Of a stretch of 64,000 bases of DNA, positions 9,892-59,666 are shown in pieces (positions within the stretch are counted from its first letter, which is position 1; each line of letters starts with the position of its first letter). The DNA comes from an uncultured bacterium (GTDB lineage Bacteria; Babelota; Babeliae; Babelales; Babelaceae). The notes beneath the pieces are model-generated. The model had not been told where the DNA came from, did no database searches, and saw nothing but the letters and a program-made list of their open reading frames with translations. Both the position numbers and the translations under genes were made by a program. The stretch lies in NCBI GenBank assembly GCA_963722385.1, contig CAVRKK010000002.1, forward strand, positions 224,001 to 288,000, given 5' to 3'.

Positions 9892-10056
9892 TTCTCCGTC
9901 AGGAGAATTGCGGTAGCGATAAGCATGCGTGGCGCATGCTTATCGCATTCAGACCTACCAAAAAATGAGTCAATAGAGTAAAAAGATAAATAGACAGGTG
10001 CAGGAGCACGCTCCTGCTGCTCGCCGCATAGGCGCGCCCGCTGCGTAGGCGATATT
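9892..10056 (+). repeat. Dispersed five-hairpin element, copy A (candidate ncRNA or REP-like element)
   Basis: ttctcc-gtca-ggagaa; gcgataagcatgcg-tgg-cgcatgcttatcgc; gcaggagc/gctcctgc; cgcc-gcata-ggcg; cgct-gcgta-ggcg; gatatt end; aligns with copies B-D. Confidence 0.85.
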
Positions 10057-10215
10057 CTATTCATGCTGTAGAGCTCGATCGCGAATACGTGGGAAAGCAA
10101 TGCAATTATGTACTGGCCTTTACCGATAAAATTCTGCTAATCTAGAACAAGACTTAGTGATTAGCATAAGGTGCAGCATCCTCACAAATTTGAGCCAACA
10201 GATTGCGGTAAAGCG

Positions 10216-12996
10216 CTACGCTTGATCCGTAATTAGATCAAGAGAATGGCATTTGGTATCAAACGTACCGGGTACTAAGGTGCACTGATCGGAGGGACCG
10301 ACGCGGCCGACAAGGACCGTACTCATTTTATCGATAGCAAAGACCTTTTTGACAGCTTGCTTGACATCATCCACAGAAATATTCTGAAAGGCCTGCATAC
10401 GCGTATTATAATAATCGAAGGGCAGCTTGTGATAAGCAAGAAACTCAAAAATCCTCACGATATTGTCCGTGGTAGCATAATATTGGTGCACTGCTTCAGC
10501 AATATTAGCGCGTGCCATTTCAAGGTCTTGTTCAGTTAATGTATCAATATCATGTACAATAAAGTCCCGTAACAATTGATAAGTCTCATCCAGGCGGTCA
10601 TTTGAGACAATAGTGGAGACATAGGAGTATCCAGGCTGTAGGCTAGACCATGCAAGCAGCGAGCCGCGCACTGTATAAAAAGCACCTGTCTGCTGACGCA
10701 ACTTAAAAAGCCGGTCATATAAAAGCTGTTCATAGAGCAAAAGAGCGCCATGATCAGGATGACTATAGGGAACTGAAAGACCCGCAATAGTAAGCGATAC
10801 CTGATCGCGATTCAGATAATGGGAGACCGTTTGTGGTCCCTCATATTGGACATCCGGGTAAGTCATGTCAGATGTGCAACCACCAGTCCATGTACCAAAG
10901 GTGCCTTCCAGAAGGCCTTTTAGATTTAAGTAGGAGCCAAGGTCGCCCACCAAAATAAGCGTAGCATCGCAGGGGGAAATGTTTGTGGTATAAATCTGCT
11001 TAATATCCTCGTTGGTGATAGCGTTGATTGCTGCTGGCTCAGCAACATGATCAACAGCATTGGGATGATTCCTAAAAACAAGCTGTTGACGTATCAGGCC
11101 CATAATTGCTCGGGGATCGTCCCACAGATTTTTGTAACTGGCAAGCATCCAGGCTTTTACTTTAGAAAGCATTGCTGGGTCAAAGGCTGGCTGAGCAATG
11201 AGTTCGCCAAGCAGAGCGAGCATTTGTGGTAGGTCTTTGCTTATACATGAAGCGGTCAAACCACTGGCATTTACGCTAAAAGTTATGCCTAATCGTTTAA
11301 GTTCTTGGAACAGCTCATACGCTGTATGCTTCTGGGTTCCTCCTTCTTGGAGCATATATCCCAAGCATTCAAAAAGTCCTGGCTTGTCTTTGGGTTCATA
11401 GTCAGGCAAGCCAGCTTTAATATTAAGGTTAAGCTTAACAAGCGGGACCTGGTCAGTAATGTGATACAATACCCGAATGCCATTGCCTAACCATATTTCC
11501 TGTGGCTGCGGATAGTTTTGCACCGTAATAGCTGGCTTATCAAGTGTCTTGACGTAGCGGCCTTCTTCTACAGCGAGCGTGCGTATTTTGCCGGCCAAGA
11601 TGCGTGCGTCTTCTTCGTCAGACCGTTCCTGAAGCATCTGCCAGGTGTCAAACTCTTCTGCGGGCAGGGGCAAAATAAAGCCCTTGTGCATTTGCGCTGA
11701 CCGAAAATGCGCAGACGTAAATGCTTTAACTTTTTCGCTCAACGCTTCGGGGGCTTCGTAGATAACCTCATGCATTATTTTATAGAAATAGTTTTCATCA
11801 CCAATCGCGATATAAAGGTCACCTATAGTGTTTGCTTGCTGTGAGTTGCTTTCTAGTATGGTAAAAAAGTTTGCTTTTAATTGAGCAATTGCGGCATCGA
11901 TTTCATCCGCTGAAGGCCCATGTTGTGCAAAGTCTCTGAGCTCTTCCTGCACCACGTTAATTATCTGATCAGCGGCGACAAGGTCTCGTGGTTCAACCAT
12001 TAAGGTATACATGTCCGTATCGTCAAGATCAAGATTGAAGCCTTCGAGAGAATCGACGAGCTGCAATTCATCAACAAGTTTTTTATAAAGGCGTGACGTT
12101 TTTCCGCGTGCTAGAATAATATCGATAAGCGTAAGTAAGTGAAGTTGCTTTTGTTTTTTTCCCGGAACTGCAAAAGCGAGTGCCATTTTTGGCTGTTGAA
12201 CATCGCGATAAATAGTTACTGCTTGTGCACGTAAATCAGCGTTTAGGTAAAACTCGCTTTTTTGATAGCTCGGATCAGCTGGCAGGTGGCCAAAATTTAA
12301 TTGAGCAAGCTCCACAACTTCCCGTGGGTCAACATTACCCACCACAACCAATATCGCATTATTGGGAACATAATGCTTTTTATAAAATTTTTTTAATGTA
12401 TCAGCGCTCACGTTATAGAGATCATGCTTATACCCAATAATAGGGTAGTGATAGGGGTGTTCTGGATTAATGGCGGTGAGCATATCGAGAACAAGAGTGT
12501 GCGCGTAATTATCACGGTATATCTTGAGCTCTTGAATAACTGCTTTAAGCTCTGAGTTAAGCATTTCCTGCCTAAACGTACAGTTGCTCATGCAATCGGC
12601 AAGGATAGGGAGAGCAATCTTCCAGGATTCGGTGGGAAAGTCAAATACCATAGCCGTATGGTCATAACTGGTAAAGGCATTCCAGTTTGCCGAGAATTTT
12701 TGGCCTATGAGGTCGATGTCGGTTTCGGAGAGTCGGTCTGTGCCCTTAAAAAGCATGTGCTCGATCAAATGAGCAATTCCTTTTTCTTGTAAGCCCTCAT
12801 GCTTGGAGCCAACGCCGTAGAAAAGGCGCAGTGATACCTTTTGAGTCGTATTAATTGGTCGTACAAGCACGGTTAGGCCGTTAGTAAGCACGTGTTTTGA
12901 TACTGCAACATTCTCAAATTCGATTTTGGTAGAATCTTGTGCGATTACAAGCGAGCAGAAAAGACCTAAAAGAAAAATAAGCGTATTTATAAGCAT
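10216..12996 (-). CDS. M16-family (insulinase/PqqL-like) zinc peptidase, secreted, two fused halves
   Basis: LTNGL, GIAHLIEHMLFKGT (HxxEH), NAFTSYD, HPY..PIIG, YVPNNAILVVVG. Confidence 0.93.
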   Translation of the reverse strand: MLINTLIFLLGLFCSLVIAQDSTKIEFENVAVSKHVLTNGLTVLVRPINTTQKVSLRLFYGVGSKHEGLQEKGIAHLIEHMLFKGTDRLSETDIDLIGQKFSANWNAFTSYDHTAMVFDFPTESWKIALPILADCMSNCTFRQEMLNSELKAVIQELKIYRDNYAHTLVLDMLTAINPEHPYHYPIIGYKHDLYNVSADTLKKFYKKHYVPNNAILVVVGNVDPREVVELAQLNFGHLPADPSYQKSEFYLNADLRAQAVTIYRDVQQPKMALAFAVPGKKQKQLHLLTLIDIILARGKTSRLYKKLVDELQLVDSLEGFNLDLDDTDMYTLMVEPRDLVAADQIINVVQEELRDFAQHGPSADEIDAAIAQLKANFFTILESNSQQANTIGDLYIAIGDENYFYKIMHEVIYEAPEALSEKVKAFTSAHFRSAQMHKGFILPLPAEEFDTWQMLQERSDEEDARILAGKIRTLAVEEGRYVKTLDKPAITVQNYPQPQEIWLGNGIRVLYHITDQVPLVKLNLNIKAGLPDYEPKDKPGLFECLGYMLQEGGTQKHTAYELFQELKRLGITFSVNASGLTASCISKDLPQMLALLGELIAQPAFDPAMLSKVKAWMLASYKNLWDDPRAIMGLIRQQLVFRNHPNAVDHVAEPAAINAITNEDIKQIYTTNISPCDATLILVGDLGSYLNLKGLLEGTFGTWTGGCTSDMTYPDVQYEGPQTVSHYLNRDQVSLTIAGLSVPYSHPDHGALLLYEQLLYDRLFKLRQQTGAFYTVRGSLLAWSSLQPGYSYVSTIVSNDRLDETYQLLRDFIVHDIDTLTEQDLEMARANIAEAVHQYYATTDNIVRIFEFLAYHKLPFDYYNTRMQAFQNISVDDVKQAVKKVFAIDKMSTVLVGRVGPSDQCTLVPGTFDTKCHSLDLITDQA

Positions 12997-13098
12997 GCGT
13001 ATCTTTCGAGCAATAATATTGTTAATGCCCTGTTAGTATATCAGTGTGTTTGTAAAGTACAATAATCAAATGAATTTTGAATCAAATCGCTTGTCAGA

Positions 13099-13478
13099 AA
13101 GAATGCGCCTCCGCGGCGCCAGCGGCAAGCGGGGTTCTCGCAAACCCCCTTGCAACCCGTGCGCCATGTTCCCTGGACCCTAATCCAAGCGGCCCCACTC
13201 ATGCATCTTGCATCCTGAAAGGATGCGCCGAGCTATTACGAGGGGCCTCATCAGATTTTCATTTATTAAAGATTTTGGTAAAAAGAATGATGCAAAACAA
13301 AAAATCCATTCTCCGTTAGGAGAATTGCGTTTGCCGTAATCATGCGCCCCGCATGGTTATGGCACTAGACGAGATAAAAGATATAGCAGGTAGAGTGCAA
13401 ACATCAGAATCCATGGGTGCAGGGCCGCCGCACTGCCGCTCGACGCGGAGTCGCCCCAGCCGGGCAGGCGATATTCTT
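13099..13478 (+). repeat. Dispersed five-hairpin element, copy B (core 13308-13475) with inverted half-module at left (13099-13180)
   Basis: attctcc-gtta-ggagaat; gccgtaatcatgcg-ccc-cgcatggttatggc; gggtgcagggccgccgcactgccgctcgacgcggagtcgccccagccgggcaggcgatatt. Confidence 0.85.
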
Positions 13479-13556
13479 CGTTATAAGCGATTAGACTGTT
13501 GAACTCCATAAAACAATATGGCATGCTAGAGCAGCTAACTAATCAAGGACACAAAA

Positions 13557-13961
13557 ATGGGCTTTGTAACACTTGCTCGCGATAGGGCAACAGGCAACTA
13601 CCTTATTGTTGATAACGATGATGAAAAATTATACGTTGTTGCAGAGCTATTACTAAATAGCGCAGCGCGCAAAGCCGTAAAAAGCCTCATTGACATTGAC
13701 GACCCTGACCAGGACAAGGCACAGTCTGGCAACTTTAAGTTTATTAAACAGCATGAGCAACATATCGATATCAAGCTTTACGATCCCCAAAGGCCCCGCG
13801 ACGCTGCTAACCCTCTTGAAATTATAATAGCTCTTTCCCTTCTTGATGACCTCATCGATGCATGGGAAATGTATATGCTTGAGCCGCCTGAAAAATTGGT
13901 CCTTTCACGAAGACGCGACTCTGATATAATTCAGCTTGGCCCTGAGCCTATTCTTACGTAA
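13557..13961 (+). CDS. Hypothetical acidic protein
   Basis: AAGGA RBS, 134 aa. Confidence 0.65.
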   Translation: MGFVTLARDRATGNYLIVDNDDEKLYVVAELLLNSAARKAVKSLIDIDDPDQDKAQSGNFKFIKQHEQHIDIKLYDPQRPRDAANPLEIIIALSLLDDLIDAWEMYMLEPPEKLVLSRRRDSDIIQLGPEPILT

Positions 13962-14008
13962 CAAAGCCGGTTAATATCGCATACGGACGATAAAAAAGTT
14001 GATATACT

Positions 14009-14995
14009 ATGATCGGCATTTTACTTTTTCATAACCGGAGTGTTCTTATGGAACTGGCAGGCATCGTGCGCTCAATAATTAAGCAAACATTGATTCTAGC
14101 AATCATAAGCATAACAGCGAGCAATATTAAGGGACATGCCATCTCAACATCGATTGGCCAATATGAGCCTGGTCTTGCTTTTGCTGCTGGCATGGTGGCG
14201 CGCGGCGTAACAACCGCTATAGGATTTCATCTCGCTGGCAAAGTGTTTGATCAACAGCGCGTACTTCGCGGCATAAACATGACCGAACCCTATAAAAAGT
14301 ATTTTGTCGAAGATCTTTTTGAGACACTTACCGGTCTTGACCTTGCTATTGTTGCCTGGACAACAGCACACCTTACCTTCAAGCCGGTAGCTAACGTGGC
14401 ATCACTAGCCAAAACAGTATCGCCATCTGACCTGGTACGAAGCAAAACTTTTGACCTTGGTTACTTAAACGGCATGGATACCTGGTATACCTACACAACA
14501 CTGCTGTCGCTCTATGCCATGCTTAAGAAATACTCTAGTAGACCGACTTTAGCAGATTATAAAGCTTTAATAGAACAAACAAAAGATACCGCCAACTCAT
14601 CCGCCTTAATAGCTTCTCTTCCCGATGAAGAATTATGGCAAGGCTTCCAGCAACGGGAAACTCTCGCTTCCTTTTCCACCGGACTTTTAACAAGCTACCT
14701 TAACTTCATGTTCGCTGAATACGTAGCCAGCAAGGCATGCGGTAAAGAATGGTATAATGAGGGCTTTAAAACAAAAGTATCCGCCGTATTGATAATTTTT
14801 AATATAGGAATCACCCTGAACGCGCTCACCAAAGCTATTTATTTTGGGCTACGTGACGAAACGCTCTCTGCCTGTCATGCATGCGATGAGTCATTCAAGG
14901 GTGGCGACGATTTGGCCTATGTGTTAAGCGGCGTTATCCCAGGATGGATGGCATTCTATAAAAATTTAATGTCACCCAAAGTCAAAACTGCGTAA
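14009..14995 (+). CDS. Hypothetical membrane protein (start may be 14048)
   Basis: 328 aa ORF with signal/TM segments, followed by terminator. Confidence 0.65.
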   Translation: MIGILLFHNRSVLMELAGIVRSIIKQTLILAIISITASNIKGHAISTSIGQYEPGLAFAAGMVARGVTTAIGFHLAGKVFDQQRVLRGINMTEPYKKYFVEDLFETLTGLDLAIVAWTTAHLTFKPVANVASLAKTVSPSDLVRSKTFDLGYLNGMDTWYTYTTLLSLYAMLKKYSSRPTLADYKALIEQTKDTANSSALIASLPDEELWQGFQQRETLASFSTGLLTSYLNFMFAEYVASKACGKEWYNEGFKTKVSAVLIIFNIGITLNALTKAIYFGLRDETLSACHACDESFKGGDDLAYVLSGVIPGWMAFYKNLMSPKVKTA

Positions 14996-15017
14996 TTATT
15001 TTTTTCATTCACGTTAT

Positions 15018-15049
15018 TATACGGCGCTTTCCAAAAAAAGCGCCGTATA
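15018..15049. terminator. Intrinsic terminator-like hairpin
   Basis: tatacggcgcttt...aaagcgccgtata. Confidence 0.7.
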
Positions 15050-15120
15050 TATTCATGATTGACAGTCTTTCGCGAAGATACTATAGTTTGGTGAAGTTAA
15101 TTTTACTACTGGGGGCTGTT

Positions 15121-16101
15121 ATGAAAAGATGGCTAATACTCTGCTATTTTATAGCATCGGCATCCATAAGCAATGCTATGGAAATAAAAGATGTGTTTCA
15201 AGAATCGCACTACTTGAGTAAGGGTTCTAACCAAGCAAGTCCCGAAATAACGCAACGTGTGCACAACATACTCAAGGAAGCTGGTTTTGAAATTGATGTT
15301 AACGTTGTTCACGACCCGAGCATACCATGTGGCCAGGCATACCTTGCCGGCTACCTGCCGCCTTATTCTTTAGTAATCGGCGGCAACACGCCTGAATGTC
15401 TTGAGGAGACAAGATTCCCTATCTATGTTCACGCGGAATACGCCCTCAATAACTATCCATTGGTCAAGCCCGCCGTACAATCAGGTTCTCTTGGTGTAGG
15501 ACTATCGATCCTTTTCTCAAAACTTTTTTCCCTCAAAAATCCTCTTTCTGTCCCTCGTGGCCCCTGGATTTTGGTACCCTTGCTTTCCGTAACTTCTTTG
15601 CTTATTGGTGAAAAAGTTGATGATAAAGTGCAAGAACGTGTCGAACTGAGCATCGCAAAAAAGCTTCTCGAGCAAAACAAGCTGCCAATTGTGCTTCGTG
15701 AAATTTTAAGAAGCCAAGAAGAGAAATCCTATCATAATGCTAAAACCAGGTACCTGCGCGACTATAATTTAAAAAATTTCCTCATCGAGGAAGGGATCAA
15801 TTTTGAGGAAGAGCTCTATTCTCTCTGGAAAGCACGAAAAAGAGCAGCATGGGAACAAAATAACGTAACGGCGCTGGAACAGGTAGCGATGCTCGTTGAT
15901 GAAATAAAAACGCTGAGCTACCCTTTTGAGACCGATTACGATGACCAAATGCGCGTCGATTACCAAGAGCGCTACGAACAGCAAATATTATTTGCTTATA
16001 ATTTTTTGTGCGAAATGACTGGCATGAAGCCTGCTGTTTCGTTTAAAGAAATCACCAAGCTGTTTGAACTTGGTTTTAAGATACCTGAACCAGCCGCGTA
16101 A
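15121..16101 (+). CDS. Secreted paralog of 6118..7575, apparently lacking HExxH; carries C-terminal YN-module
   Basis: Signal peptide; WKARKRAAWE..ALEQVAMLVDEIK aligns with WKEMKQDEWE..AAQQIRDLISNIK. Confidence 0.65.
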   Translation: MKRWLILCYFIASASISNAMEIKDVFQESHYLSKGSNQASPEITQRVHNILKEAGFEIDVNVVHDPSIPCGQAYLAGYLPPYSLVIGGNTPECLEETRFPIYVHAEYALNNYPLVKPAVQSGSLGVGLSILFSKLFSLKNPLSVPRGPWILVPLLSVTSLLIGEKVDDKVQERVELSIAKKLLEQNKLPIVLREILRSQEEKSYHNAKTRYLRDYNLKNFLIEEGINFEEELYSLWKARKRAAWEQNNVTALEQVAMLVDEIKTLSYPFETDYDDQMRVDYQERYEQQILFAYNFLCEMTGMKPAVSFKEITKLFELGFKIPEPAA

Positions 16102-16138
16102 GATCCTCATATTTATGTTTATGCAATAGTTGGCAGCA

Positions 16139-16725
16139 TTGACACTCCCCCATGGATAAAATAGTGCCGAGCACCATCCAGGGGACTCTTGCTTCATCGA
16201 GCAGCCAGCGCCGTCTCTCCACAAGCCTTAAGGACGGATCCTCCGTCGCTAAAGCTATGGCGGACAGGCTGTCCGAGCGTGGGTGACGAAGCCTTGGCGA
16301 AGTCTCCCCGCCCTGATATTTATACTCGCATTCAAATCTCTGTCCATTACCATGCCACATGATTGGCAAGTATAGGTTCGAATACTGAGCGGCATTTCTT
16401 GTCTACTTTTGCATGTAGAGCAAAGCTTACTTGTTGGCTCAAACCTATCTATTATGACAAGATGTTTGCCATACCAATCACATTTGTATTGAAGATAGAG
16501 CTTAAATGTATACCAGCCAACATCCACTATCGCTCGTGCCAGTTTTCTATTTCTTATCATGCCGCTTACTGACAGGTTTTCTATTGCAACAACATCGTGG
16601 TTTTTGATTATTGCTGTTGTCAGTTTATGTAAAAAGTCTTTTCTTTGGTTTCGTACATAAAGATATTTTAGCATCATTTTATTTGACGCATAGGCCATCT
16701 TGCTGGTTTTTTTGTCCAAAACCAC
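16139..16725 (-). pseudogene. tnpB: IS200/IS605-family tnpB 3' remnant with right end
   Basis: RNQRKDFLHKLTT, IENLSV, FEPTSKLCSTC..YTCQSCG..DRDLNASINI; N-terminal two-thirds absent; right-end hairpin tcccc..gggga then gtgTCAA ending at 16139. Confidence 0.88.
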
Positions 16726-16807
16726 GAATACATCCGCTCTCTTAAGGCTTAAGCATTTGATTTTATTATAAGATACTTTATGATAATATTATTATAAATA
16801 GCAATAA

Positions 16808-17932
16808 ATGAGGTTCTTGGTGAAATTAAAATTTTTTAAAGTAAACTTTATTCCCCTTGCTCTGATCTCTATCTTTTGTAGCTTAAGCCTTATTGCCAGC
16901 GATCAACAAGACAACGAATTGGAAAGCGTTATTGAAGGCTTAGAAACTCCTACTGCCGGCTTTGCGATGGCTTCTCAGCTTGCTCTGAGCGGACTTAATG
17001 GCTGGAACACGTTTGAATTAGACTCAACCGATGGATTAGATCTTTATAATACCATGCGTAAAAAACTTGGTATGCCCCGCGCTTCTACACTTGACAAGAT
17101 AGACAAAGATTGGCTGTATGAGTTTGCCAAAACCAAGTCAAAGGCGCAAGTGCTACATTCTCAAGATGTTTGTGGGCCGCGCCTGCAGGAACAACAAATA
17201 GCTTTGGAAGCTGCTCGCCTTGTGCATTTCAATCGCCCATTAGCCGCCTTAAGCTTTACCTCTCATGCCAGAAAAGGCGCGGCTTCCATCATGCATGACC
17301 CTGTACAAAACTACATAGTTTTTGCACAACAACCAGATTTAGACATTACCTCGTTTACGGTTTACCATGAGCTCAATCATCTCATACATAATGATACTCT
17401 CAAAGAGGCGTTATTAGAGGATAACCGCGAATACCTTGACTTTCTTACGCAAGAATGCACGTTTATAGCCAGCTTGCACCGGGCGCAACAGTATCTTGAG
17501 CAAGGAGTCCGCTTATTACCGGCGTTACAGAGTACAGCAATCGGCAAGCAACTTGCCAAGCTTTTCATGCAAGCACAACAAAAGGCAGATAACCACGCAT
17601 TGTTTTGGAACATGGCAAGCGATGATGAAGATTATCAGAAAATGCTCTATCTGCGCCAACAAGAAAAGATGGCAGACCTTTTTGCTTGTGATCAATTAAT
17701 GAAGCTCAAAAAATTATCACCCATTCTGGGCTTTTTACAGGTATGGACATTTTCTCATTATTATGCGAAGCCTTTTGTGATTGCTGAGCGTTATAATATT
17801 CATCCTTCGCATACTGAAAGAGCATTGTACATTATAGGTTTACTCGCCGACCATCTTCCTAACCTTGCGCAGGTCATCCAAATCTGGAAAAACACGGGCG
17901 AATGTTCACCTATAGATCCTTTTCGCACCTAG
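16808..17932 (+). CDS. Secreted M48-like zinc metalloprotease with N-terminal YN-module
   Basis: Signal peptide; YHELNH, QEKMADLFACDQL (cf. YERDADLFACNQL in 6118), IHPSHTER. Confidence 0.75.
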   Translation: MRFLVKLKFFKVNFIPLALISIFCSLSLIASDQQDNELESVIEGLETPTAGFAMASQLALSGLNGWNTFELDSTDGLDLYNTMRKKLGMPRASTLDKIDKDWLYEFAKTKSKAQVLHSQDVCGPRLQEQQIALEAARLVHFNRPLAALSFTSHARKGAASIMHDPVQNYIVFAQQPDLDITSFTVYHELNHLIHNDTLKEALLEDNREYLDFLTQECTFIASLHRAQQYLEQGVRLLPALQSTAIGKQLAKLFMQAQQKADNHALFWNMASDDEDYQKMLYLRQQEKMADLFACDQLMKLKKLSPILGFLQVWTFSHYYAKPFVIAERYNIHPSHTERALYIIGLLADHLPNLAQVIQIWKNTGECSPIDPFRT

Positions 17933-18013
17933 CAAAATGCCCTTTAAACCCTCCTTCGCTGAGCAAATAGAAGCCGCCAGCCCGCCGGAGGCAATTTTTG
18001 CTTTTCCGCCTTT

Positions 18014-18044
18014 GTCAATGACCCACGATTAAAATCCTGGGCTT
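18014..18044. mobile_element. Orphan IS200/IS605-type terminal hairpin
   Basis: gtcaatgacccacgattaaaatcctgggctt: ccca.gatt/aatc.tggg stem next to GTCAA, resembling IS605-family ends. Confidence 0.45.
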
Positions 18045-18170
18045 CCTTGCTCTTCTCGTGATAGAAATGCTATCAAATATTAACTTCAAATGTCGATATT
18101 TTATTTTGTTTGTTATATATTATAAATTATCCTTAGAATAGAATTTTCAAATAGAATCAGACACAACAAG

Positions 18171-18319
18171 AGCCTATCTGAACTAAATTTGTGTGAAGAT
18201 AATGATCTGGAAGGCATCTTGGATTCACGCTATCTTTCCAGCTTGGTAAAATAGCAATTCAGCAGCGACAGTTAACTATTGATGGCTTCATCAACTGAGA
18301 CATCTGGAAAAGCCTTCTT
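18171..18319. repeat. Degenerate direct repeat, copy 1 (includes hicB 3' end)
   Basis: Aligns over ~148 bp with 19146-19296. Confidence 0.85.
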
Positions 18320-18706
18320 CACGCGGGCTAGGGTTACAAGTGTTGGATTAGCACGTCTAGTTTCTAGCTTTTGATAGCTATACAGAGTATTAAAGCCCAT
18401 CTTTTTTGCAGCTTCTTGTTGAGTTAGCCCGTTCAAAATTCTGTTTCGCCTAACCATAAAAGAGAAGGCAATCTGCGGCGACACTGCTACCTCAACAATA
18501 TCTTTTTTCAGTTTAATCGATGCATCAGGCAATGCCGCAAGATCCTTAGACTTCTCGGGTTCTTCTATATAGAGATCGAGAGCTTCCTGCATATTTTTTT
18601 GAAGCTCTTCCATAGTATCACCTTCTGTTATACATCCTAGGAGCTCTATACATCGCGCTGAATAGCCCCCGACTTTTTCTTTCCTTATTTTGAAATGGTA
18701 TTTCAT
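18272..18706 (-). CDS. hicB: HicB-family antitoxin with C-terminal XRE HTH
   Basis: GGYSARCIELLGCITEGDT.EE...NMQEAL, then LTQQEAAKKMG..SYQKLE..NPTL. Confidence 0.9.
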   Translation of the reverse strand: MKYHFKIRKEKVGGYSARCIELLGCITEGDTMEELQKNMQEALDLYIEEPEKSKDLAALPDASIKLKKDIVEVAVSPQIAFSFMVRRNRILNGLTQQEAAKKMGFNTLYSYQKLETRRANPTLVTLARVKKAFPDVSVDEAINS

Positions 18707-18906
18707 TTTTTTGTCCCTTCTTTAATGCTTTCTAATAATTTTCTAAAGTCATGCTCTGTACCTGGCTTTAGTTCTTTATGATCAGGAATAATAACAGTAG
18801 GACAATTCTTTTTTTTAAGTTTCATATGACTTCCCTTCCCTCCACTGACAAGCACATAGCCACAATCCTCAAAAAGCTTGCGCATTTTTCTACCACTGAT
18901 AGGCAT
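18703..18906 (-). CDS. hicA: HicA-family mRNA interferase toxin
   Basis: GKGSHMKL, IIPDHKELKPGT; 4-bp overlap with hicB. Confidence 0.9.
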   Translation of the reverse strand: MPISGRKMRKLFEDCGYVLVSGGKGSHMKLKKKNCPTVIIPDHKELKPGTEHDFRKLLESIKEGTKK

Positions 18907-19083
18907 CGCTACTCTCCACTGTTGCTTCCTCAGTTGTTTATTTTATCTTAACAACTATAGGTGGTAAAATCAAGAACAAAATAACGACAAACTGTTATTT
19001 TCAAAATAATAAGGGTGGCATCTGATACTTGGCAGGAATGCGATCATTCCATATTTTGCACTTTTTGGGCGACACCGTTCCAA

Positions 19084-19140
19084 GGGTCCAGGGCTTGCTC
19101 GCCGCACAGGCGATAAATTACCTTTGCCGCCTACGCAGAA
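19084..19140 (+). repeat. Truncated half-copy (E) of the five-hairpin element
   Basis: gggtccaggg..tgctcgcc-gcaca-ggcgata followed by inverted cgcctacgcag. Confidence 0.6.
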
Positions 19141-19145
19141 GCAAC

Positions 19146-19296
19146 AGCCTACTGAACTAAATTTGTGTGAAAATAACGACCTGTAAGGATCTCGGAGTTT
19201 TCAGCACGCTATCTTTCCTGCTTGGTAAAGCAGCAATTGAGCATCGACAGTTTAACTTATTGATGGCTTCATCAAGATACCTGGCAAAGCCTTCTT
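19146..19296. repeat. Degenerate direct repeat, copy 2
   Basis: Aligns with 18171-18319. Confidence 0.85.
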
Positions 19297-19428
19297 GATA
19301 ATAAATTGTCTGTCTCTTTTCGTAAACGATCAGCACTTTTAAGATAAACTGTTGCAACCTTTAATTCAAACATGCTATTTTCAAATTATAAATAATTTTA
19401 GTTTTTTAATTAATAAAAGGAGGCCCCC

Positions 19429-20004
19429 ATGATAAAGATAAATCAATTTTTAATTTTGCCTATTCTTGCGGCTGGCTTATCGAACGAGCCCCTCCAGGCT
19501 TTTTCCACGCGAATATGCAACAATACCAAACAACAAATAACGGTCAAACTTCATCCAAGCTTTGGCAATTGTCCGGCAGGTATTGAAGGCCCCTTTACCA
19601 TAAAACCCTCAAGCTCCACAGATTTCCCGTGGAACGATCCCCATTGGCACCCAAAAACCGGAACCTGCCTGCTTCAAAAAGCTGACAATTCTATTGAGGT
19701 TAATGGAGCAGCTCTCTCACGAGGCGATATCACGGTAAATCGTTCATATAACGAACATAGGGGAAGCGAAACCATCACAATCCAGTCAAAACCACATGGC
19801 GGTTTTACCGCAAGCTTATTCGGCCATACCCAAGATTGTGCGTCTCATACTCTTGGTTATGCAACCTGCGCTGACGGCACGACCAACTACATTGGCGTGA
19901 GCAGGAGCCCCTGCTGGAACTGTCGTGTTGCTCGCAGAATTTGTGACGGAGCTCATGGCGGCCTTAAGCCCGGCAGCTGGCCGTCAAATTGCGATGCATG
20001 CTAA
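19429..20004 (+). CDS. Secreted cysteine-rich hypothetical protein
   Basis: AGGAGG RBS, signal peptide (LQA|F), 10 Cys. Confidence 0.75.
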   Translation: MIKINQFLILPILAAGLSNEPLQAFSTRICNNTKQQITVKLHPSFGNCPAGIEGPFTIKPSSSTDFPWNDPHWHPKTGTCLLQKADNSIEVNGAALSRGDITVNRSYNEHRGSETITIQSKPHGGFTASLFGHTQDCASHTLGYATCADGTTNYIGVSRSPCWNCRVARRICDGAHGGLKPGSWPSNCDAC

Positions 20005-20048
20005 CGAACAAAAGGTAGGACCAGATAGCAGCTGCGCTCAGCACCATA

Positions 20049-20741
20049 CTATCTGGCCGATAAGTCTTTCAAGTATAAAGGCAACAGCTGCGGCGCTGTT
20101 TCATGGAGCGTCCAGCGACGCCATGCCTGAGCATATAAAGCCTTCATCGAGCAGAGATTGGGCACATTCTCAGGTATAATAATGCGGCAGCCAAATTGAT
20201 TAAGAAGCGCTGAACGGTGTAAAAGTACGCCATTACCGACACACGTAGCTAATGGCATTTCCGAAGCAGCAGTCATCTCTAGAAGATTTTCAAGAAGCTT
20301 GATAAATTCAAAAATAGACAGACAGCCGATCTCTACCGCTTGGTTATTATTGTTATACGCAGCAAAATAAACATCATTGCAGAAAGCGTTAAGCAGCACA
20401 ACAAGGTAAGGCGTGTTAACTTTTTCGCGCTGCTCTTCTACAAAAGCAGTTAATCCATCAACACCCACCAATGGCAGCCCTGTTGCGTAGGCAAGGCCAT
20501 TGAGCGTCGATAACGAAACGCGCAACGTGGTAAAGGGCGCCGGGCCGACGTGGCCCGCCAAAAAAGAACAGCAACTCAGCGAAAGACTATTACGGCTTAA
20601 AAGAAGGTCCGTTGCGATAAGAAGGTCGCGACTCGCTTGATGCTTGGGCACGCTATACGTGTCGACAATATTCTGCTCGTAAGCAAGCGCGAGGTCTACG
20701 TGAGTGTAGCCGCTATGGTATGCTAACCCTATATGGCTCAT
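20049..20741 (-). CDS. tsaB: tRNA threonylcarbamoyladenosine biosynthesis protein TsaB
   Basis: VGPAPFTTLRV..LNGLAYATGLPLVGV, VGNG, PLYLK. Confidence 0.8.
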   Translation of the reverse strand: MSHIGLAYHSGYTHVDLALAYEQNIVDTYSVPKHQASRDLLIATDLLLSRNSLSLSCCSFLAGHVGPAPFTTLRVSLSTLNGLAYATGLPLVGVDGLTAFVEEQREKVNTPYLVVLLNAFCNDVYFAAYNNNNQAVEIGCLSIFEFIKLLENLLEMTAASEMPLATCVGNGVLLHRSALLNQFGCRIIIPENVPNLCSMKALYAQAWRRWTLHETAPQLLPLYLKDLSAR

Positions 20742-20761
20742 GCAAGCATTTTTCTCCCATG

Positions 20762-20944
20762 CTAATGGTTGCGATTCTTATATTTTTGCTGCTGGTAAAA
20801 AAGGCTAAAGGCATCATACTCGATAGTCTTTTCCTTCTTGGCTATAATTTTACCACAATTTAAGCATTTCCACCCTTCAAAGTTAAGAAAGTGATCAAAA
20901 AAAGACTGTAGTACCATAAGCCCAGAGCACTTCGAGCATCGCAT
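20762..20944 (-). CDS. Small zinc-ribbon protein
   Basis: MRCSKCSGLM...WKCLNCG; GGGAG-like RBS. Confidence 0.8.
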   Translation of the reverse strand: MRCSKCSGLMVLQSFFDHFLNFEGWKCLNCGKIIAKKEKTIEYDAFSLFYQQQKYKNRNH

Positions 20945-21154
20945 ACATTCCCTCTCCCTTATCCATCCACCTCAGATCTCATAAGCCCATATTAAAAAGA
21001 AAATCTAAAAAACGCATTACCGGGTTGTCAACAAGAAAGTAGAGATAAGTATTGGCCAGAGGTATTAAAAGGCCAAGCAAGCAGTCCGCCTTGTTATTCA
21101 CCTGAGCAGGACGGCTACTTGCGCACAAAAAAACCGAGAAACCTTTTGTCATCG

Positions 21155-21583
21155 CTAAGAATGGTCGTTTTCTTGCGATTGCTGGTGCGATAAAAAGGTT
21201 AAATAAGAATCGAGAATAAAGGCAGCAGCGATCGAATGAGATTTTCGCTTTTCTTCGGGTGTCCGTATGCGACGAAGCGTCTCAGTTCTTTTACTACTTA
21301 AACGCTCATCCCACAAAAGGAACATAACGTGCGGAAAGCGGTGCTTTAGTGCTTCATATTCATTAAGCACATGCTGCGTCTGCTCGCTCACCGTCCCCCG
21401 CAGCGTTTTGGGATAGCCTATAACAATAGCTTCGATGCGCTCTTGCTCGATTATGCGCTCAAGAAAGATCTCAAGCTGTGGGCGCTCAACAGTAATATGC
21501 GGTTGGGCGATTATTTTGAGGCTATCAGAGAGCGCCGTACCCACCCAGCGCGCGCCCAGATCAAGCGCAAGAATCTTGCCCAT
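21155..21583 (-). CDS. ruvX: Holliday-junction-resolvase-like protein RuvX/YqgF (pre-16S rRNA nuclease)
   Basis: ILALDLG..VGTALSD, VIGYP, WDERLSS, AAAFILDSYL. Confidence 0.92.
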   Translation of the reverse strand: MGKILALDLGARWVGTALSDSLKIIAQPHITVERPQLEIFLERIIEQERIEAIVIGYPKTLRGTVSEQTQHVLNEYEALKHRFPHVMFLLWDERLSSKRTETLRRIRTPEEKRKSHSIAAAFILDSYLTFLSHQQSQENDHS

Positions 21584-21675
21584 GCAATCCTTTCCAAAAT
21601 CAACATAAATCTTTATACTGGAAAACAGTCTAACAACAATTCGGTTCTGTCGCCAGACAGCTTAAGGGAGCACTC

Positions 21676-25181: not shown

Positions 25182-25304
25182 GTGAGTATTTTCTCGCCTG
25201 AGTGTTTTAAATGGCTAACTAGAAATAATTTAAAATTAATTACATATTGATTATTATACCTGAAATATAATTTTTGAAAAGTTTTTTGCCGAAACGGTTA
25301 CCCG

Positions 25305-26735: not shown

Positions 26736-26873
26736 ACTTGCAAAAGAATTTGCTTGATTAAGAATAACGCAGATGCCATCATAAAGGGGCAAAATACATT
26801 TATTGGTTGCAAAATCACGCATTTTAATGATATACTTAATTCTGTCAAGAAAATCTAAAACAATAGGAAGTAC

Positions 26874-30221: not shown

Positions 30222-30254
30222 GCAGTACATAGAATAAATAGACTAGAATAGAAT

Positions 30255-30586
30255 AAAATCGCCTGCGCGGCTGGCGCCAAAGGGGGTTACCCCCTTTGGG
30301 ATCCCAAAGCGCTATGCTTATAGGCTTGGTGTGAGTAGTTATCGTACGCAAAAGCGTACGATAACTTACGCCATTATCATGTACCGCTACGCTCCATGAT
30401 AAGGATCAATATCGCTTTCTATCTTCCGTTAGGAAGATTGCAGGAGCTATAATCATGCGCCACGCATGTTATAGCATTCACGAGCAAAAAATAAAGACAA
30501 AGCATAGAGAGAAATAGAGATTAGGCAATGGGTGCAGGGCCGCCGCCCTGCCGCTCGACGCGGAGTCGCGCCCGCTGCGTAAGCGT
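30255..30586 (+). repeat. Dispersed five-hairpin element, copy C (core 30421-30586) with inverted end and three extra hairpins at left
   Basis: atcttcc-gtta-ggaagat; gctataatcatgcg-cca-cgcatgttatagc; gcagggc/gccctgc; cgac-gcgga-gtcg; cgct-gcgta-agcg. Confidence 0.85.
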
Positions 30587-44036: not shown

Positions 44037-44112
44037 GGGCTGCTAGCTCAATTGGCAGAGCAACAGACTCTTAATCTGTGGGTTCGCGGTTCGATTCCGC
44101 GGCAGCCCACCA
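44037..44112 (+). tRNA. tRNA-Lys(CTT)
   Basis: Cloverleaf; acaga-ctCTTaa-tctgt; ggttcga; CCA end. Confidence 0.96.
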
Positions 44113-44121
44113 GCAAGCCGA

Positions 44122-44206
44122 GCAAGAGTGGCGGAATTGGTAGACGCGCTGGACTTAGGATCCAGTCCTTCACCGGGTGGGGGTTCGAGTCCCTCCTCTT
44201 GCACCA
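44122..44206 (+). tRNA. tRNA-Leu(TAG)
   Basis: ctgga-ctTAGga-tccag; long variable arm; CCA end. Confidence 0.96.
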
Positions 44207-45538: not shown

Positions 45539-45541
45539 TAT

Positions 45542-47972: not shown

Positions 47973-48047
47973 TGGTGCCGGGAGGCGGAATTGAACCACC
48001 GACACAAAGCTCTTCAGGCTTCTGCTCTACCACTGAGCTACCCCGGC
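47973..48047 (-). tRNA. tRNA-Phe(GAA)
   Basis: gccgggg...gaagc-ctGAAga-gcttt...ggttcaa...cccggcaCCA. Confidence 0.93.
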
Positions 48048-52768: not shown

Positions 52769-53013
52769 AGGTATTGTCCAGCAATAGCCTATTTTACCTG
52801 ATAGTTTAACAACGCTTGCGTCAGCCAAAAATGGCCCTCTGAACCCAAAATAATACAAGAAATGATCCACAACCACTGCTAAAGAAGTATGCAAATCAAA
52901 GGCATTCGCTTCTTGCTATACAGTTGATTGCTTGCTATTATTCATACCGGTTATTTTTCTTGATATTTTGTGTTAGCAAAAATTTCCCTCATCGGGGGGG
53001 AGTCGAGGTGAGT

Positions 53014-56000
53014 ATGCAGTATAAAATAATTAAATTTTTACGCACTTTCTTAAGAAATAAGTTTTCGATCGCCACATGCTTAATCGCTTTTTGTTTTATA
53101 GCAGCAATCCCTTCAATAAGAGCCATGGATTACAAAATTGCGGTTACTGAAATAAACAAACTCTTCAAAGCAATCAAAGAAAAGGATGTCAATAAGGCAA
53201 AAAGCGCTATATATGGTATCGTAGAGAGTGGCAGGAATATTAACATAACAGATGATGAAGGGTTCTCGCCGCTGCATAGAGCCGCAGAAGCCGGCCATCA
53301 GGATCTTGTAATACTTCTTTTAGAAAATGGAGCTGATAAGACAGCGGCAAACAAGCAAGGAAAGCTCCCTCAAGATCTAACCACCGACTCCGTCATTAAA
53401 ATATTGTTAATACCTGATATGGCAATTCCCGACGGTGATGATTTTGTTCTTGGAAAAGTCGAAGAATCTGACAACAGCACTTATCAAATACCACGGATCG
53501 ATACAGGTGAAATGGCAACAAAACCCATTGATCGAAAACATCGCTATTCTAAAGCAATACATAAACCAAAGAAGCTCACTCAAGACTTAACCAGGGCTTC
53601 AAGCAGTAAAACATTCTTAACCTATGATGTAATAGTTCCTCAGCAAGCGCGCTTATTGTTGAAGAAGTCGCGGATGCTGATAATAACACATTCCATCACC
53701 GGTCTACCGATGAAACAAAAACAATATCGGTTGATCAATGGTCTAACGCTTTAAAAGAAGATACAAACATCCTAGAGCAAGACATAAAACTCTATAAAAA
53801 AATGAGCGACCTCCATGCCTCTATCGAAAGTAGTCAAATCTTTGAGCCCGTTACTGTCGATGACGAAGATTCCTGGATCGTGTGGGTCAACATTCATGGC
53901 ACCGAAATATCAGTGAACTCTATTAAACTAGATGCTGTTAATACTGCTGATTTTGAGCAACTCAAGGATATAGCTGCCTCTTATGCAAAAATAAAGAAGA
54001 AAAAGCTAAAATTTCTTACTTTTCGTTGGTCGGGGAAAAATAATTGTCCCGACCGCACCTATAGCGCAGGATGCCTTTACTTCTACTTAAAAAAAATGGG
54101 GTACTGTAACTCTAAGCATGAAATTGTACTGGCAGCACATAGTCATGGTTGCAATCTCTGCGAACCTTGTTATGCAATACATAGATGAAAAAAATCCCAT
54201 TGCACTTCTCCTCTATTTTGCCTACCCGGATAAGCAAAAATCACACTATCAAGCATGGCATTACAAACAGCGTATATCATTTTGGTCTAAGGACGACTTG
54301 GTATCGCCGTTTGCCAGAGGACGAAACTGGCTGGTTGGCGTACCTGAGATAGTAATTCCTGCCTTGCGAGATAATTCGGTACCTTTTGGCCGTGAGGTGG
54401 GTAAAATCGATGTAAGCGTTCAAGTAACCATTAATGGCCAAGGACCAGGGCATAGCGAGATTAGGGAGGTCTTCCCTTTTCTGGCGCAGATCATAGCAGA
54501 TCTTCACTATTTATACCGCCGGCACTATAGTTTAAGCGGCAATTTAAAGTTGAAGTAGATGACAATAAAGCTTTGGTAACCATACTGAATCAAGGGCAAA
54601 AAAGATACCTGTTCCCTTTGAGTGCCTTGATTTCAAAAGATGAGCATCGTTCTTCAAAAGGGTCTAATACCTATAAGTTTTTCGCCAGCATTGAAGAGCT
54701 TGTTAGAATGCCACCGATAAAGACAATGATAGTGGCGGTGATAATAAAATAATGATGAAGTCCTTGTCCCGTGAGTTAGATTTAAGCAATTGTTTAATAT
54801 CAAAGGGCTCTCTTTTTTATCGCGCCGCATGGAGGGGTTATAGAGAGTATAATCGAATACCTTGTTTATCGTGAACCAAAATATATTAATAAGAGGGATA
54901 AAGAAGGGCTCTCCCCTTTTCACTATGCCTTGCAAAAAAATCACCATTCGCTTGCGCTATTATTTATTAAGCTTAGTGCTGACACATCGGCTCTCGAAGA
55001 TAAAATAGATCTATCGAAGAAAGACGAGCATGGCAATGGCATCTTGCATCGCGCTGTTTTATCTGGCCTACCAGATTTAGTCACCTTGATTCTTTACCAA
55101 AAAAACGTTAATCTTATGAGACAAATAACAATGGAGAAAGGCTATCCATTGTGCCGCTCGAGAGGGTCATCTTGATATAGTAAAACTTCTTTAGCACGTG
55201 GTGCAAAATCAATGCACGCGATAAAAACGGGCGCTCGCCCCTCAATAGAGCCAAGCGAAATGGTTATTTTTTACTCGCTTTATTTCTTATCGAAAATGGT
55301 GCCGACACCTCGCCTATTGAAGATGAAATAGATCTCGCCAAGAAAGACAAAGATGGTAATAATCCTTTTCATATCGCAGCTGGCACTGGTCGATTAACTT
55401 TGGTTAGTTTAATTATACAGCACCACAGCAAGCTCAACATTCATGAAGTAAATAGTGATGGAGAACAAGCTATTCATAGGGCTGCTCGTAACGGCCACCT
55501 TGATATAGTAAAAATTCTTGTCTATCATGCAGCTGATATACATGCTCAAAATGCTCAAGGCCAAGAGCCTATTCATTGTGCTGCTCAAGGCGGCCAGCTT
55601 GACGTTATTGAGCGGCTTGTAACAAATGGAGTAAGTATTAACGCAAAAGATAGCCAGTTACAGTCACCGCTTCATTATCTCATAAGATCCAAACAACCCA
55701 GCTTGTCGAGGTTCAGCGTATTTCCCATGCCCCGTTTCTCATCATCACCTAATACTTTTTTAAGGGATATTACTCGCATAGTTGATCTAGGAGCCGATAA
55801 CAGAAGCTGCCGAGCAAGAAGGAAATCGAGAAATCCATTTGGCGGTACTTGAAGAAAATGAAGAGTTATTGAAACTTCTTATTGGATTTGGCGTGGATAC
55901 TGATGCAACTAATAGTGCGGGCAAAAGCCCGCTTGATCTCGCCAGGAGCATCAAGGATCCTGATAAACAATTACGCTTTACGTCTATTATTAGCAACAAC

Positions 56001-56063
56001 GTAAGCATACCTCGGGTGACTAACGCGTTTGGCCAGCGTAGCGGTTACTGTGTTCTGATATAG
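53014..56063 (+). pseudogene. Fragmented secreted ankyrin-repeat plus alpha/beta-hydrolase gene
   Basis: Consecutive ORF pieces in shifting frames: signal + GFSPLHRAA ankyrin; IHG/FRWSG/AHSHG/SKDD/GH hydrolase; further ankyrins (GEQAIHRAA, GQEPIHCAA, GKSPLDLA). Confidence 0.85.
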
Positions 56064-56190
56064 GAATCACCCATGGACCTCTCTGGCTAAAAAACTATAA
56101 AGCATCAAATCTTGTTATTTTCCGTCAAGTGTTCTAATTTTGAACAGTGAACGGTCAAATTTCGTACATTGGTTGGTCAATTTTATGACA

Positions 56191-56267
56191 TATAAAGAAC
56201 ACCCTGGAGCACATGCTTTCTTTTAGCCCCGTTGTTTTGTTAACCGGAGCGCGCCAAACGGTATCAT
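56191..56267 (+). repeat. Degenerate direct repeat, copy 2 (AAA ATPase 5' relic)
   Basis: Reads FSPVVLLTGARQT; aligns with 52695-52768. Confidence 0.7.
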
Positions 56268-56339
56268 CAAAAATTACAAAACTATCTCGCAGCCCGCTTT
56301 CAGGCAGCTTTTAAGGATCTCGAAAATTTAGAAGAGGGC

Positions 56340-56642
56340 ATGTATGGATGGATCGCCAAAACTAAGGCTTTATATTATTACAATTTTTTACGTGAACTGT
56401 TAGGTCAACCAACCGTAAATTCTACCGATAAAATTGACCCAGACCTTGTTAAAGTATCACCTGATCCCGAATTATTTTCTCAGATTGATCAATTTCTTAG
56501 GCAACAAGGTGAAGATATAAGCTTGAAACCTTCAAAAACGAGGAGCTCCAGCTCATTCTCGCCAGAAGATGAAGCAGAGATAGAGCGACTCGAGAAAGCT
56601 TTAGCAGCATTGCGACTTAAAAAAGAAATTCAAATTTCATAA
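56340..56642 (+). pseudogene. 3' gene fragment or small ORF carrying the YN-module
   Basis: YYNFLRELLGQPTVNSTDKID; frame stays open ~95 nt upstream of the ATG; followed by terminator. Confidence 0.55.
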
Positions 56643-59477: not shown

Positions 59478-59491
59478 AGCTGCGCGCGAAG

Positions 59492-59666
59492 AATATCGCC
59501 TATGCGGCTGGCACGACTACGCGTCGAGCGGCATGGCAGCGGCCCTGCACCCACACCTTAAGCCTAATGAGCGTGTATGTAGCAGCCTCTACATCTTGCT
59601 TTCTTTTAGTTTCATAACCATGCGCAACGCATGGTTATGATCACCGCAATCCTCCTGGCGGAGGAT
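59492..59666 (-). repeat. Dispersed five-hairpin element, copy D
   Basis: Minus strand: atcctcc-gcca-ggaggat; tcataaccatgcg-ttg-cgcatggttatga; gggtgcagggccgctgccatgccgctcgacgcgtagtcgtgccagccgcataggcgatatt. Confidence 0.85.

Follow-up and report, generated by a model that had tools for sequence, protein, structure and literature searches.

Copies of a multi-hairpin, very probably mobile non-coding repeat in a Babelaceae genome close with an end module found in other phyla

Four intergenic stretches, A to D, in a window of 64,000 nucleotides (the whole stretch of DNA analysed, from an uncultured bacterium of the Babelaceae, contig CAVRKK010000002.1) share the same succession of hairpins, H1 to H5, and raise the question of whether they are genes for a structured RNA or copies of something that moves. 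The initial annotation had proposed a new family of structured RNA or single-stranded DNA. When the sequence of all four copies was checked, each was located where it had been placed, with the arms described for H1–H4 (Table 1); the H3 arms are as described as well, but their pairing is imperfect in B and D, with one G-A mismatch each. Copy A folds with a z-score of −5.08 against 200 shuffles. In the left arm of copy C the terminal hairpin directly follows the groEL stop codon, and 19 nt separate the end of copy D from the stop codon of a convergent nupC-like gene. The end module of copy A is the portion that is common to other phyla.

Table 1. Repeat copies and their parts in the window.
Feature	Position	Strand	Description
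Copy A	9892..10056	+	Right arm only, without left arm upstream; model R1, 156 bits
Copy A, H1	9892..9907	+	Stem of 6-7 bp, GTCA loop
Copy A, H2	9916..9946	+	Stem of 14 bp, 3-nt loop
Copy A, spacer	9947..9996	+	Variable, A-rich; column identity 58% vs 88% in paired columns
Copy A, end module	9997..10056	+	GGTGCAGG hairpin H3, two GCRNA pentaloop hairpins, AT-rich tail
Copy B, left arm	13100..13300	-	Type L2, head-to-head with right arm; own terminal GCRNA hairpin 13119-13105
Copy B, right arm	13308..13475	+	R1, 162 bits
Solo end module	19084..19114	+	Degenerate; overlooked by the initial annotation
Copy C, left arm	30251..30420	-	Type L1; terminal GCRNA hairpin 30271-30260
Copy C, right arm	30421..30586	+	R1, 154 bits
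Copy D	59492..59666	-	Right arm only; R1, 141 bits

Further copies had been predicted elsewhere in the genome, and a hidden Markov model built from the four copies did find them: 48 matches at E<1e-7, corresponding to 46 loci, all intergenic, in the genome of the window (G000). The five-hairpin unit is real but incomplete, as B and C each have a second, minus-strand arm upstream and, genome-wide, the unit is one arm of an element of 294-510 nt (28 measurable doublets). Arms are 150-250 nt long with several hairpins each, and 37 of the 46 copies carry a second one, head-to-head and ending in the same module (type L1 in 25/46, type L2 in 10/46), which provides imperfect terminal inverted repeats that solo arms do not have; arms without an end module also occur. 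H4 and H5 prove to be a single hairpin unit repeated in tandem, and 45/46 right arms have it one to four times. The sequence distances between copies over H1-H2 and over the end module are weakly correlated (rho 0.25), thus the copies are mosaic. The elements are nested with other hairpin repeats, since 11 of the 12 genome matches of a second hairpin motif sit inside them. They lie in convergent gene gaps in 16/46 cases (94/546 of background gaps) and the flanking genes, housekeeping ones, share no common function. The right arm is on the leading-sequence strand in 16/46 (p 0.054), and no lagging-strand-template bias like that of IS200/IS605 was detected among the 46 elements. In the G000 copies no target duplication is visible, the ends are ragged and there is no empty site to compare; in contigs from four DNA runs, compared with positions 11000-30900 of the window, the only junctions linked one copy to another, and none spanned B or C. 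The missing target duplication and strand bias, together with the ragged ends, count against the explanation that we favour below.

The claim that sequence changes while pairing is kept holds in the larger set. In 43 copies (three were left out, one degenerate and two with long spacer insertions) 18 of 36 pairs are changed on both sides and 95.7% of the cells pair; none of 500 shuffles reached this, and slid controls pair at 35-46%, a comparison inflated by the fact that the structure was drawn from the same sequences. A tree-aware count gave 59 double changes on the same branch, against 6.8 ± 3.4 expected when all partners were permuted and 17.2 ± 6.1 when they were permuted within a helix, a value reached in 0/5000 permutations of each scheme. 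Even the H2 core catgcg/cgcatg, described as invariant from four copies, varies with compensation elsewhere (TA for CG in 4/43, AT for GC in 1/43). The pairing is also strand-specific: 65 cells are G-T, many of them common to several copies, versus 8 A-C cells, each in a single copy, and one T-G wobble is conserved in 27/43. Gene conversion between palindrome arms, which had been suggested as a possible mimic of covariation, would not alone yield such an imbalance.

On which molecule this folding takes place is suggested by the loops. The GCRNA loop, found in 41/43 copies, matches the RNA GNR(N)A pentaloop type (boxB, U6 ISL), and as such it points to RNA and counts against folding at the DNA level. 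The H1 loops are G-N(1-2)-A in 43/46 copies, alternating between GNNA tetraloops and GNA triloops, which are the loop types of extra-stable DNA mini-hairpins and are less stable as RNA (accessible part of PMC13037366), and only 4/46 are RNA-type GNRA. Overall, the loop sequences make it probable that the arms fold as single-stranded DNA. With RNA parameters the module strand gives the better fold in 33/43 right arms; for L1 arms this is so in only 5-6/21, which too is a point against our explanation.

Since the insertion sites are not those of a sister genome, and orthologous sites are empty in a relative, the four stretches are very probably copies of a non-autonomous mobile non-coding repeat of the REP/BOX/MITE kind, not a single-locus RNA. 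In the sister genome (G001), which has the same architecture with different H1 and H2 sequences and in which model R1 gave 22 matches among 23 candidates scored, on both arms, none of seven element loci has a G000 element beside the orthologous genes. Within the phylum the family occurs in 3/261 genomes by pattern and in 4/121 by model. The empty-site evidence comes, to its disadvantage, from a single site in a distant relative with nothing but the end module in common, a Binatus-type genus: of 19 aligned orthologues 2 have the insertion and 17 lack it. The filled site is a clean insertion of ~200 nt inside another hairpin repeat, with 2-3 nt (CT or CTA) repeated at both ends. In a second comparison (L431) the place was a hot spot of several repeats in which no boundary could be read.

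The end module, 45-55 nt long and made of a GGTGCAGG hairpin, a GCRNA pentaloop hairpin and an ATT tail, is multi-copy in Clostridia, where it forms tandem arrays, in Planctomycetota, where it forms inverted pairs, and in Binatus-type and Chloroflexota genomes, and it occurs as 21 near-identical monomers in a single-chromosome genome (G266). Five pattern matches within coding sequence (L046, L068, L070, L073 and L092) were dropped as chance; a short motif of 17 nt was not above the control in G043 (30 vs 27), whose assignment rests on longer patterns. Four strict patterns found the module in none of the viral contigs, and a looser one gave seven matches, two of them real; a tandem duplication of an arm distinguishes two prophage contigs. 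A BLAST search of plasmids returned chance matches only, a single phage match turned out to be a bacterial chromosome fragment, and a metagenome scan with an over-loose pattern yielded no true copy among the loci examined.

Putting these observations together, we somewhat favour a non-autonomous interspersed repeat of one-directional arms, folded as single-stranded DNA and moved in trans. Each arm is a run of hairpins closed by the GGTGCAGG hairpin, one to four GCRNA-loop hairpins and an AT-rich tail, and arms stand alone or head-to-head around an AT-rich centre, giving a doublet with inverted ends. A protein acting in trans may recognise the end module of the folded strand and cut beside it, and the strand would be inserted close to the ends of genes or within another hairpin repeat. 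A copy that no longer folds would cease to spread, leaving compensatory changes in those that remain, and recombination between copies might then shuffle the modules. Our guess for the mobiliser, which we regard as possible at best, is an HUH-type strand-transfer nuclease whose gene does not lie next to the copies.

A look for copies beside an HUH/RAYT transposase, reverse transcriptase or nuclease gene had been suggested, and none of the families searched emerged as a common driver. Eight were tested (Y1_Tnp, REP_Tyr_transpos, Y2_Tnp, RVT_1, GIY-YIG, DUF559, Phage_integrase and IS110) and none of them tracks the end module. Y1_Tnp/RAYT (REP_Tyr_transpos) was absent from G001, G041 and G266, though the latter has so many near-identical copies; no Y1/RAYT locus examined carries the module, several genomes being incomplete, or has a Y1 gene between inverted module copies. 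The IS200 of G000 has unrelated ends, Y2_Tnp occurs in one of ten repeat-bearing genomes, GIY-YIG matches were ordinary repair-type genes and one broken copy, DUF559 was not found in three related genomes, and Phage_integrase did not qualify as a shared driver either. When neighbouring ORFs were clustered all against all and 97 neighbours in Clostridia were scanned with Pfam, the outcome was housekeeping genes, one GIY-YIG-NUDIX and one resolvase; 13 outward-facing module pairs, 0.45-2.9 kb apart, enclose no recurring gene. That no mobiliser was found is a point against the explanation we favour.

An unlikely alternative is that the repeat is a MITE whose inverted ends are recognised by a DDE- or IS110-type transposase that moves it in double-stranded form, the internal hairpins being kept by RNA-level effects or template switching. 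The doublets with inverted ends, the clean Binatus-type site with its short terminal repeat inside another hairpin repeat, and the TCTA that precedes H1 in 29/46 copies would fit, and IS110-type elements are described as inserting within REPs (accessible part of PMC3184786). IS110 genes are indeed present in 9/10 repeat-bearing genomes; however, they also match in 6/14 control genomes, there is no match in G001 and only a broken one in G000, and a full module was found at 0/28 IS110 loci, two of which have only an H3 hairpin nearby. The ISAs1 of G000 has unrelated ends. Moreover, solo arms and one-directional monomers have no second end and spread all the same, and within an element the ends resemble each other no better than those of different elements do (0.63 vs 0.62, p 0.52, n=29). 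With the described MITEs (Correia, RUP, ERIC, Nezha, Chunjie; accessible part of PMC3184786) the repeat shares a non-coding length of a few hundred bases, inverted doublet ends and filled and empty sites, but it differs in its many local hairpins in place of one long stem, in the ragged ends and the lack of a visible target duplication in G000, and in having no cognate IS among the families searched (IS200, ISAs1, IS110), whose loci have other ends.

Quite unlikely, too, is a structured RNA family selected for a host function, as two divergent small RNAs or as a 3' element. The strong covariation with its G-U bias, the better folding of most right arms on the module strand, the pentaloop, the AT-rich centre, the likeness of H3 to the first hairpin of Rfam Clostridiales-2 and an L2 end that passes a terminator scan would be in keeping with it; against it are the scarcity of GNRA loops, the patchy distribution at non-orthologous sites, the lack of common function of flanking genes and the lack of promoter excess (0 and 1 sites vs 0.9 and 0.6 expected). 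The reading as a five-hairpin RNA gene is not supported for what is half of a larger interspersed mobile repeat. No Rfam family reaches its gathering score in the window, and no noteworthy match appears at E<=10. The consensus of Clostridiales-2 (RF02937) opens with the same GGGggUGcaGgGG...CCcCugCCG hairpin as H3, but has a distinct 3' part and no H1/H2, and it scores at most 17 bits in G000 and 27 in a clostridial genome, where the gathering threshold is 58.6 bits. In L2 a hammerhead-like CTGATGAG has no GAAA half, and Rfam gave no support to likenesses with relaxase nick sites, group II intron domains 5-6 and TwoAYGGAY. If copying of the repeat needs folded ends, selection on structure is expected and no host function is implied. 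The repeat is also a clear case of strong covariation that does not mean a functional RNA.

Very unlikely is that no dedicated enzyme is involved, host replication and repair copying the repeat by hairpin-driven template switching and by recombination into small seed hairpins, with quasi-palindrome correction restoring the pairing. The failure of any enzyme to track the repeat, the ragged ends, the nesting and the arm duplication between prophage contigs agree with such a process, but it leaves unexplained the bias of G-T over A-C, the conserved T-G wobble, the fixed loops and the same end sequence in several phyla. The least probable alternative is a SINE-like retroposon whose RNA 3' stem-loop is copied in trans by a reverse transcriptase, for although the 3' module is conserved while 5' parts are lineage-specific, solo modules exist, L1 ends run into short (AATTC)n-like tails and pentaloop-plus-tail ends are those of stringent LINEs, RVT_1 has no match in G001, G057, G267, G268 and G269 and only a fragment in G000, a partial module lies near 1/18 reverse transcriptase loci, duplications of variable length are absent and some arms lack an end module.

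Known repeat systems offer partial likenesses. In the accessible parts of PMC3733652 and PMC6006769, REP/BIME/REPIN-RAYT repeats are GC-rich extragenic palindromes that occur singly, in inverted doublets and in tandem clusters, are enriched where genes converge and are patchy within a phylum, as here; the differences are the absence, in G000 copies, of a GTAG/GTGG or CGTC foot at H1, H2 and the end module, the lack of a repeat-flanked RAYT gene, the long multi-hairpin arms and the uncoupled doublet ends, and the accessible REP table of PMC6006769 has one unrelated row and not our motif. The BOX elements of Streptococcus (accessible part of PMC3049150), compared by modular build only, likewise have exchangeable modules, variable numbers of tandem sub-units and nested repeats, but here the variable units are terminal and not between two fixed ends, arms spread alone, and no IS with similar ends was found. 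In TIRtron/TIRYT elements (PMC3733652, PMC6006769) the inverted repeats are likewise rich in GGG and in part self-complementary, and they form dimers and clusters in the genomes of several phyla; the module sequence, GGGTGCAG, departs from GGGG[AT][CG]A[CG], and there is no Y1 gene between inverted copies at the loci examined. The repeat shares no ends with a TnpA element of the IS200/IS605 type. No adjacent reverse transcriptase or single locus, as in a retron msr-msd, was seen. Sites of the attC type end in RYYYAAC...GTTRRRY and flank gene cassettes; the H2 arms do not fit this, the neighbours are housekeeping genes, and the sole tyrosine recombinase scored 46.8 against an integron integrase cut-off of 265, with matches in 38/40 family genomes. 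Literature searches found neither the module motif described as a repeat or palindrome, nor, among the papers listed, the shorter motif or a mention of Dependentiae, nor 'Clostridiales-2' together with 'RNA motif'; the description of Clostridiales-2 expected with PMC5737381 may bear on novelty.

A repeat family within one uncultured lineage is of an ordinary, familiar kind. What is added is the cross-phylum end module and the eight enzyme families that do not track it. Where otherwise unrelated repeats of several phyla are closed by the same structure, a common binding protein is implied, and PMC3733652 raises, for CGTC repeats, the question of how REP-like repeats spread without a RAYT. As a speculative possibility, rather doubtful at present, the end module might mark an undescribed superfamily of single-stranded DNA mobile repeats in at least five phyla, moved by an enzyme outside the REP, MITE and IS200/IS605 movers (a strand-transfer nuclease not yet recognised, or an enzyme co-opted from the host, e.g., a primase) and able to bracket and carry short genes, toxin-antitoxin pairs for instance. 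With a substrate that is short and defined, and with a genome that has 21 near-identical copies, the question of the mobiliser is testable.

The four copies flagged in the window (A–D in the table) are present as originally described, and the expectation of many more across the genome was borne out: an HMM built from them gave 48 matches at E<1e-7 in the 1.60 Mb, two-contig genome that contains the window (G000; contigs C1 and C2), corresponding to 46 intergenic loci, frequently within housekeeping clusters. The five-hairpin unit, on the other hand, has to be redefined. Its hairpins are there, but they make up only the right arm of the element (H1, H2, an A-rich spacer and an end module, composed of the H3 hairpin, hairpins with a GCRNA loop and an AT-rich tail), and in 37 of the 46 copies a left arm, of type L1 (25), L2 (10) or L3 (2), lies upstream on the opposite strand. 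Since left and right arms terminate in the same type of terminal hairpin, the doublets, which span 294–510 nt in the 28 measurable cases, have inverted ends. Left arms were also found alone, e.g., at C1:58116 and C2:439099, and secondary insertions sit in their loops. One unit, a 3–4 bp stem with a GCRNA loop, accounts for both H4 and H5 and occurs 0, 1, 2, 3 and 4 times in 1, 10, 24, 10 and 1 right arms, respectively. A second hairpin motif, which may be linked to GIY-YIG genes, had 11 of its 12 G000 matches inside these elements; the hairpins preceding a broken GIY-YIG gene (C1:296479-297091) resemble this motif as nested in the element tails.

Features located in the window
Feature	Position	Strand	Remarks
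Copy A	9892-10056	+	no left arm
Copy B	13308-13475	+	left arm L2
Copy C	30421-30586	+	left arm L1
Copy D	59492-59666	-	no left arm
Solo end module	19084-19114
Intact ISAs1	4787-6031		ORF 4856-6019, 390 bits vs cut-off 70
Small gene pairs, presumably resembling HicAB and ParD/RelE toxin-antitoxin modules	18272-18903 and 26867-27376	- and +	only a weak HTH match
Repeat-built genes	37307-41292 and 52924-56642		periods ~144 nt (propeller-like) and ~99 nt (ankyrin-like, by resemblance)
Three tRNA genes	44037-44203 and 47976-48047		Rfam
25-nt deletion and 142-nt skip	11577 and 12384-12527		in contigs of both DNA sequencing runs X1 and X2

Of the two small gene pairs, the first has the solo end module upstream of it. 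The deletion and the skip fall within a 926-aa peptidase-like gene and reflect either strain variation or an assembly difference. Propeller-like and ankyrin-like repeats dominate the most frequent words of G000. The cumulative GC skew of this genome bottoms out near C2:597 kb, and a DnaA-like gene, recognised by eye, is near C2:22 kb (22–23 kb).

The proposal that sequence varies while pairing is kept was confirmed in an alignment of 43 G000 copies (3 of the 46 were left out): 95.7% of the cells pair, and 18 of the 36 pairs show two-sided changes, a number reached by none of 500 shuffles. Parsimony on a tree counted 59 same-branch double changes, whereas two permutation nulls gave 6.8 and 17.2. 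As pointed out in the initial annotation, gene conversion between palindrome arms could mimic such a pattern. G-T cells, however, were 65 vs only 8 A-C cells, every one of the latter a singleton, indicating that one strand is favoured and that wobble variants spread, while mismatches did not; this argues against palindrome correction by itself. The family is real and structure-constrained. Strand-specific pairing is no argument for a host function: any repeat that has to fold in order to be copied faces the same selection.

According to PMC5737381, motifs of ssDNA and of RNA are not reliably separated by comparative methods. The H1 loops fit G-N(1-2)-A in 43 of 46 cases (GTCA 20, GTTA 13, GTGA 4, GCCA 2, and also GGCA, GCA, GAA and GGA) and GNRA in only four, and GNA/GNNA loops are extra-stable DNA mini-hairpin loops with less stable RNA counterparts, according to PMC13037366. 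Folding energy favoured the module strand in 33/43 right arms as RNA and 27/43 as DNA, and in 7/8 and 8/8 L2 arms, respectively, but not in L1 arms (5/21 and 6/21). Scans of copies B and C gave no promoter excess. The GCRNA loop, found in 41 of 43 copies, is of the RNA GNR(N)A pentaloop type, which counts against folding as DNA. On balance, we consider it fairly probable that the arms fold at the DNA level.

As anticipated, the element has no Rfam match, only the three tRNAs of the window reaching the gathering score, and it fails attC membership; searches by E-value, run on 30 loci and on copy C, revealed nothing noteworthy within the elements. Retron membership failed too, and so did that of Rfam Clostridiales-2, despite a similar first hairpin. 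In contrast to classical MITEs, no cognate IS was found among the IS200, ISAs1 and IS110 loci, and no target duplication was seen at the ragged ends of the G000 elements. It differs from REP-RAYT systems in lacking a GTAG foot and a RAYT gene flanked by the repeat, and its motif is absent from the REP table of PMC6006769. REP/BIME and BOX repeats are likewise modular and extragenic, and occur single, paired or in tandem. No description of the family or motif was found in the literature searched, most subscription papers being outside its scope; as far as searched, the family is undescribed, while its kind, a REP/BIME- or BOX-like repeat, is known.

As a check, the initial annotation proposed looking for copies next to an HUH/RAYT transposase, reverse transcriptase (RT) or nuclease gene. 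Clustering of neighbouring ORFs revealed no recurring mobile gene, and 97 neighbours scanned against Pfam gave the same outcome. No mobiliser was found among eight enzyme families tested, several carrier assemblies being incomplete. The two near-identical IS200 copies of G000 have ends that differ from those of the element, and ISAs1 likewise has its own, different ends (seven paired sets and four lone in the genome). A tyrosine recombinase adjoins an element, yet it was matched in 38/40 family genomes. G000 also holds fragments of RT, IS110 and GIY-YIG genes. Y1 and RAYT were not found in the sister genome G001 or in the carriers G041 and G266, nor RT in five carriers; Y2 occurred in 1 of 10 repeat-bearing genomes. 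Neither an IS200/IS605-type replication bias (16/46) nor a REPIN-type coupling of doublet ends was seen.

In G000, elements occupy convergent gaps in 16/46 cases vs 94/546 background gaps, and divergent ones in 7/46 vs 155/546; the background included only gaps of 150–1200 nt, so that short convergent gaps are under-counted. Both gltX-like genes of G000 (C2:727014-729100 and C1:314193-316062) adjoin elements, as do gltX-like genes in G057, of the same phylum, and in Planctomycetota (loci L280, L056 and L344); this adjacency was noticed post hoc and may be due to chance. At L433:400-1750, a HigBA-like pair is bracketed, cassette-like, by two direct element copies and an inverted partial copy. 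The doublet also occupies one and the same site in two prophage contigs that are related to each other and contain Mu-like genes (L515:1800-2050 and L519:3100-3500); in one of them the left arm is tandemly duplicated. In G057 (C3:858-890 kb, L276-L277), duplicated gene blocks separated by four modules suggest a repeat-mediated duplication.

Within the phylum, the module pattern matched 3 of 261 genomes (G000 21, G001 6, G057 9; controls 0), and R1, a model of the right arm, had matches in 4 of the 121 relatives, G056 being the additional one; just 23 candidates were scored in each genome. In G001 the H1-H2-spacer-module architecture is retained, H1 and H2 themselves differing in sequence, and at none of the seven G001 loci compared was a G000 element next to the orthologous genes. 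In the genus of G266, a Binatus-type genome, one site holds the element in 2 of 19 aligned rows and lacks it in the other 17 (29 loci fetched, 11 dropped because their flanks did not align on both sides). The insertion is of ~200 nt, with 2–3 nt repeated at either end, and 13 of the 17 empty rows keep its target, a different hairpin repeat. We read the family as a mosaic mobile repeat. None of the conclusions depends on the unpublished genomes G287 and G288.

Two strict patterns of the end module gave 92 and 101 stretches in the genome collection (80 examined each): tandem arrays in Clostridia (motif matches 350 and 222 vs 24 and 7 in controls), inverted pairs ~100 nt apart in Planctomycetota, mostly monomers in Binatus-type genomes (G266 21, control 0), further occurrences in Chloroflexota and single matches in three other phyla. 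R1 aligned with these modules over positions ~100-162 only (14–32 bits), so any homology across phyla would concern the module region, and the likeness may also stem from convergence. Confinement to one lineage applies to H1-H2, but not to the end module. An end shared across phyla, with no known mobiliser, sets this family above a routine repeat.
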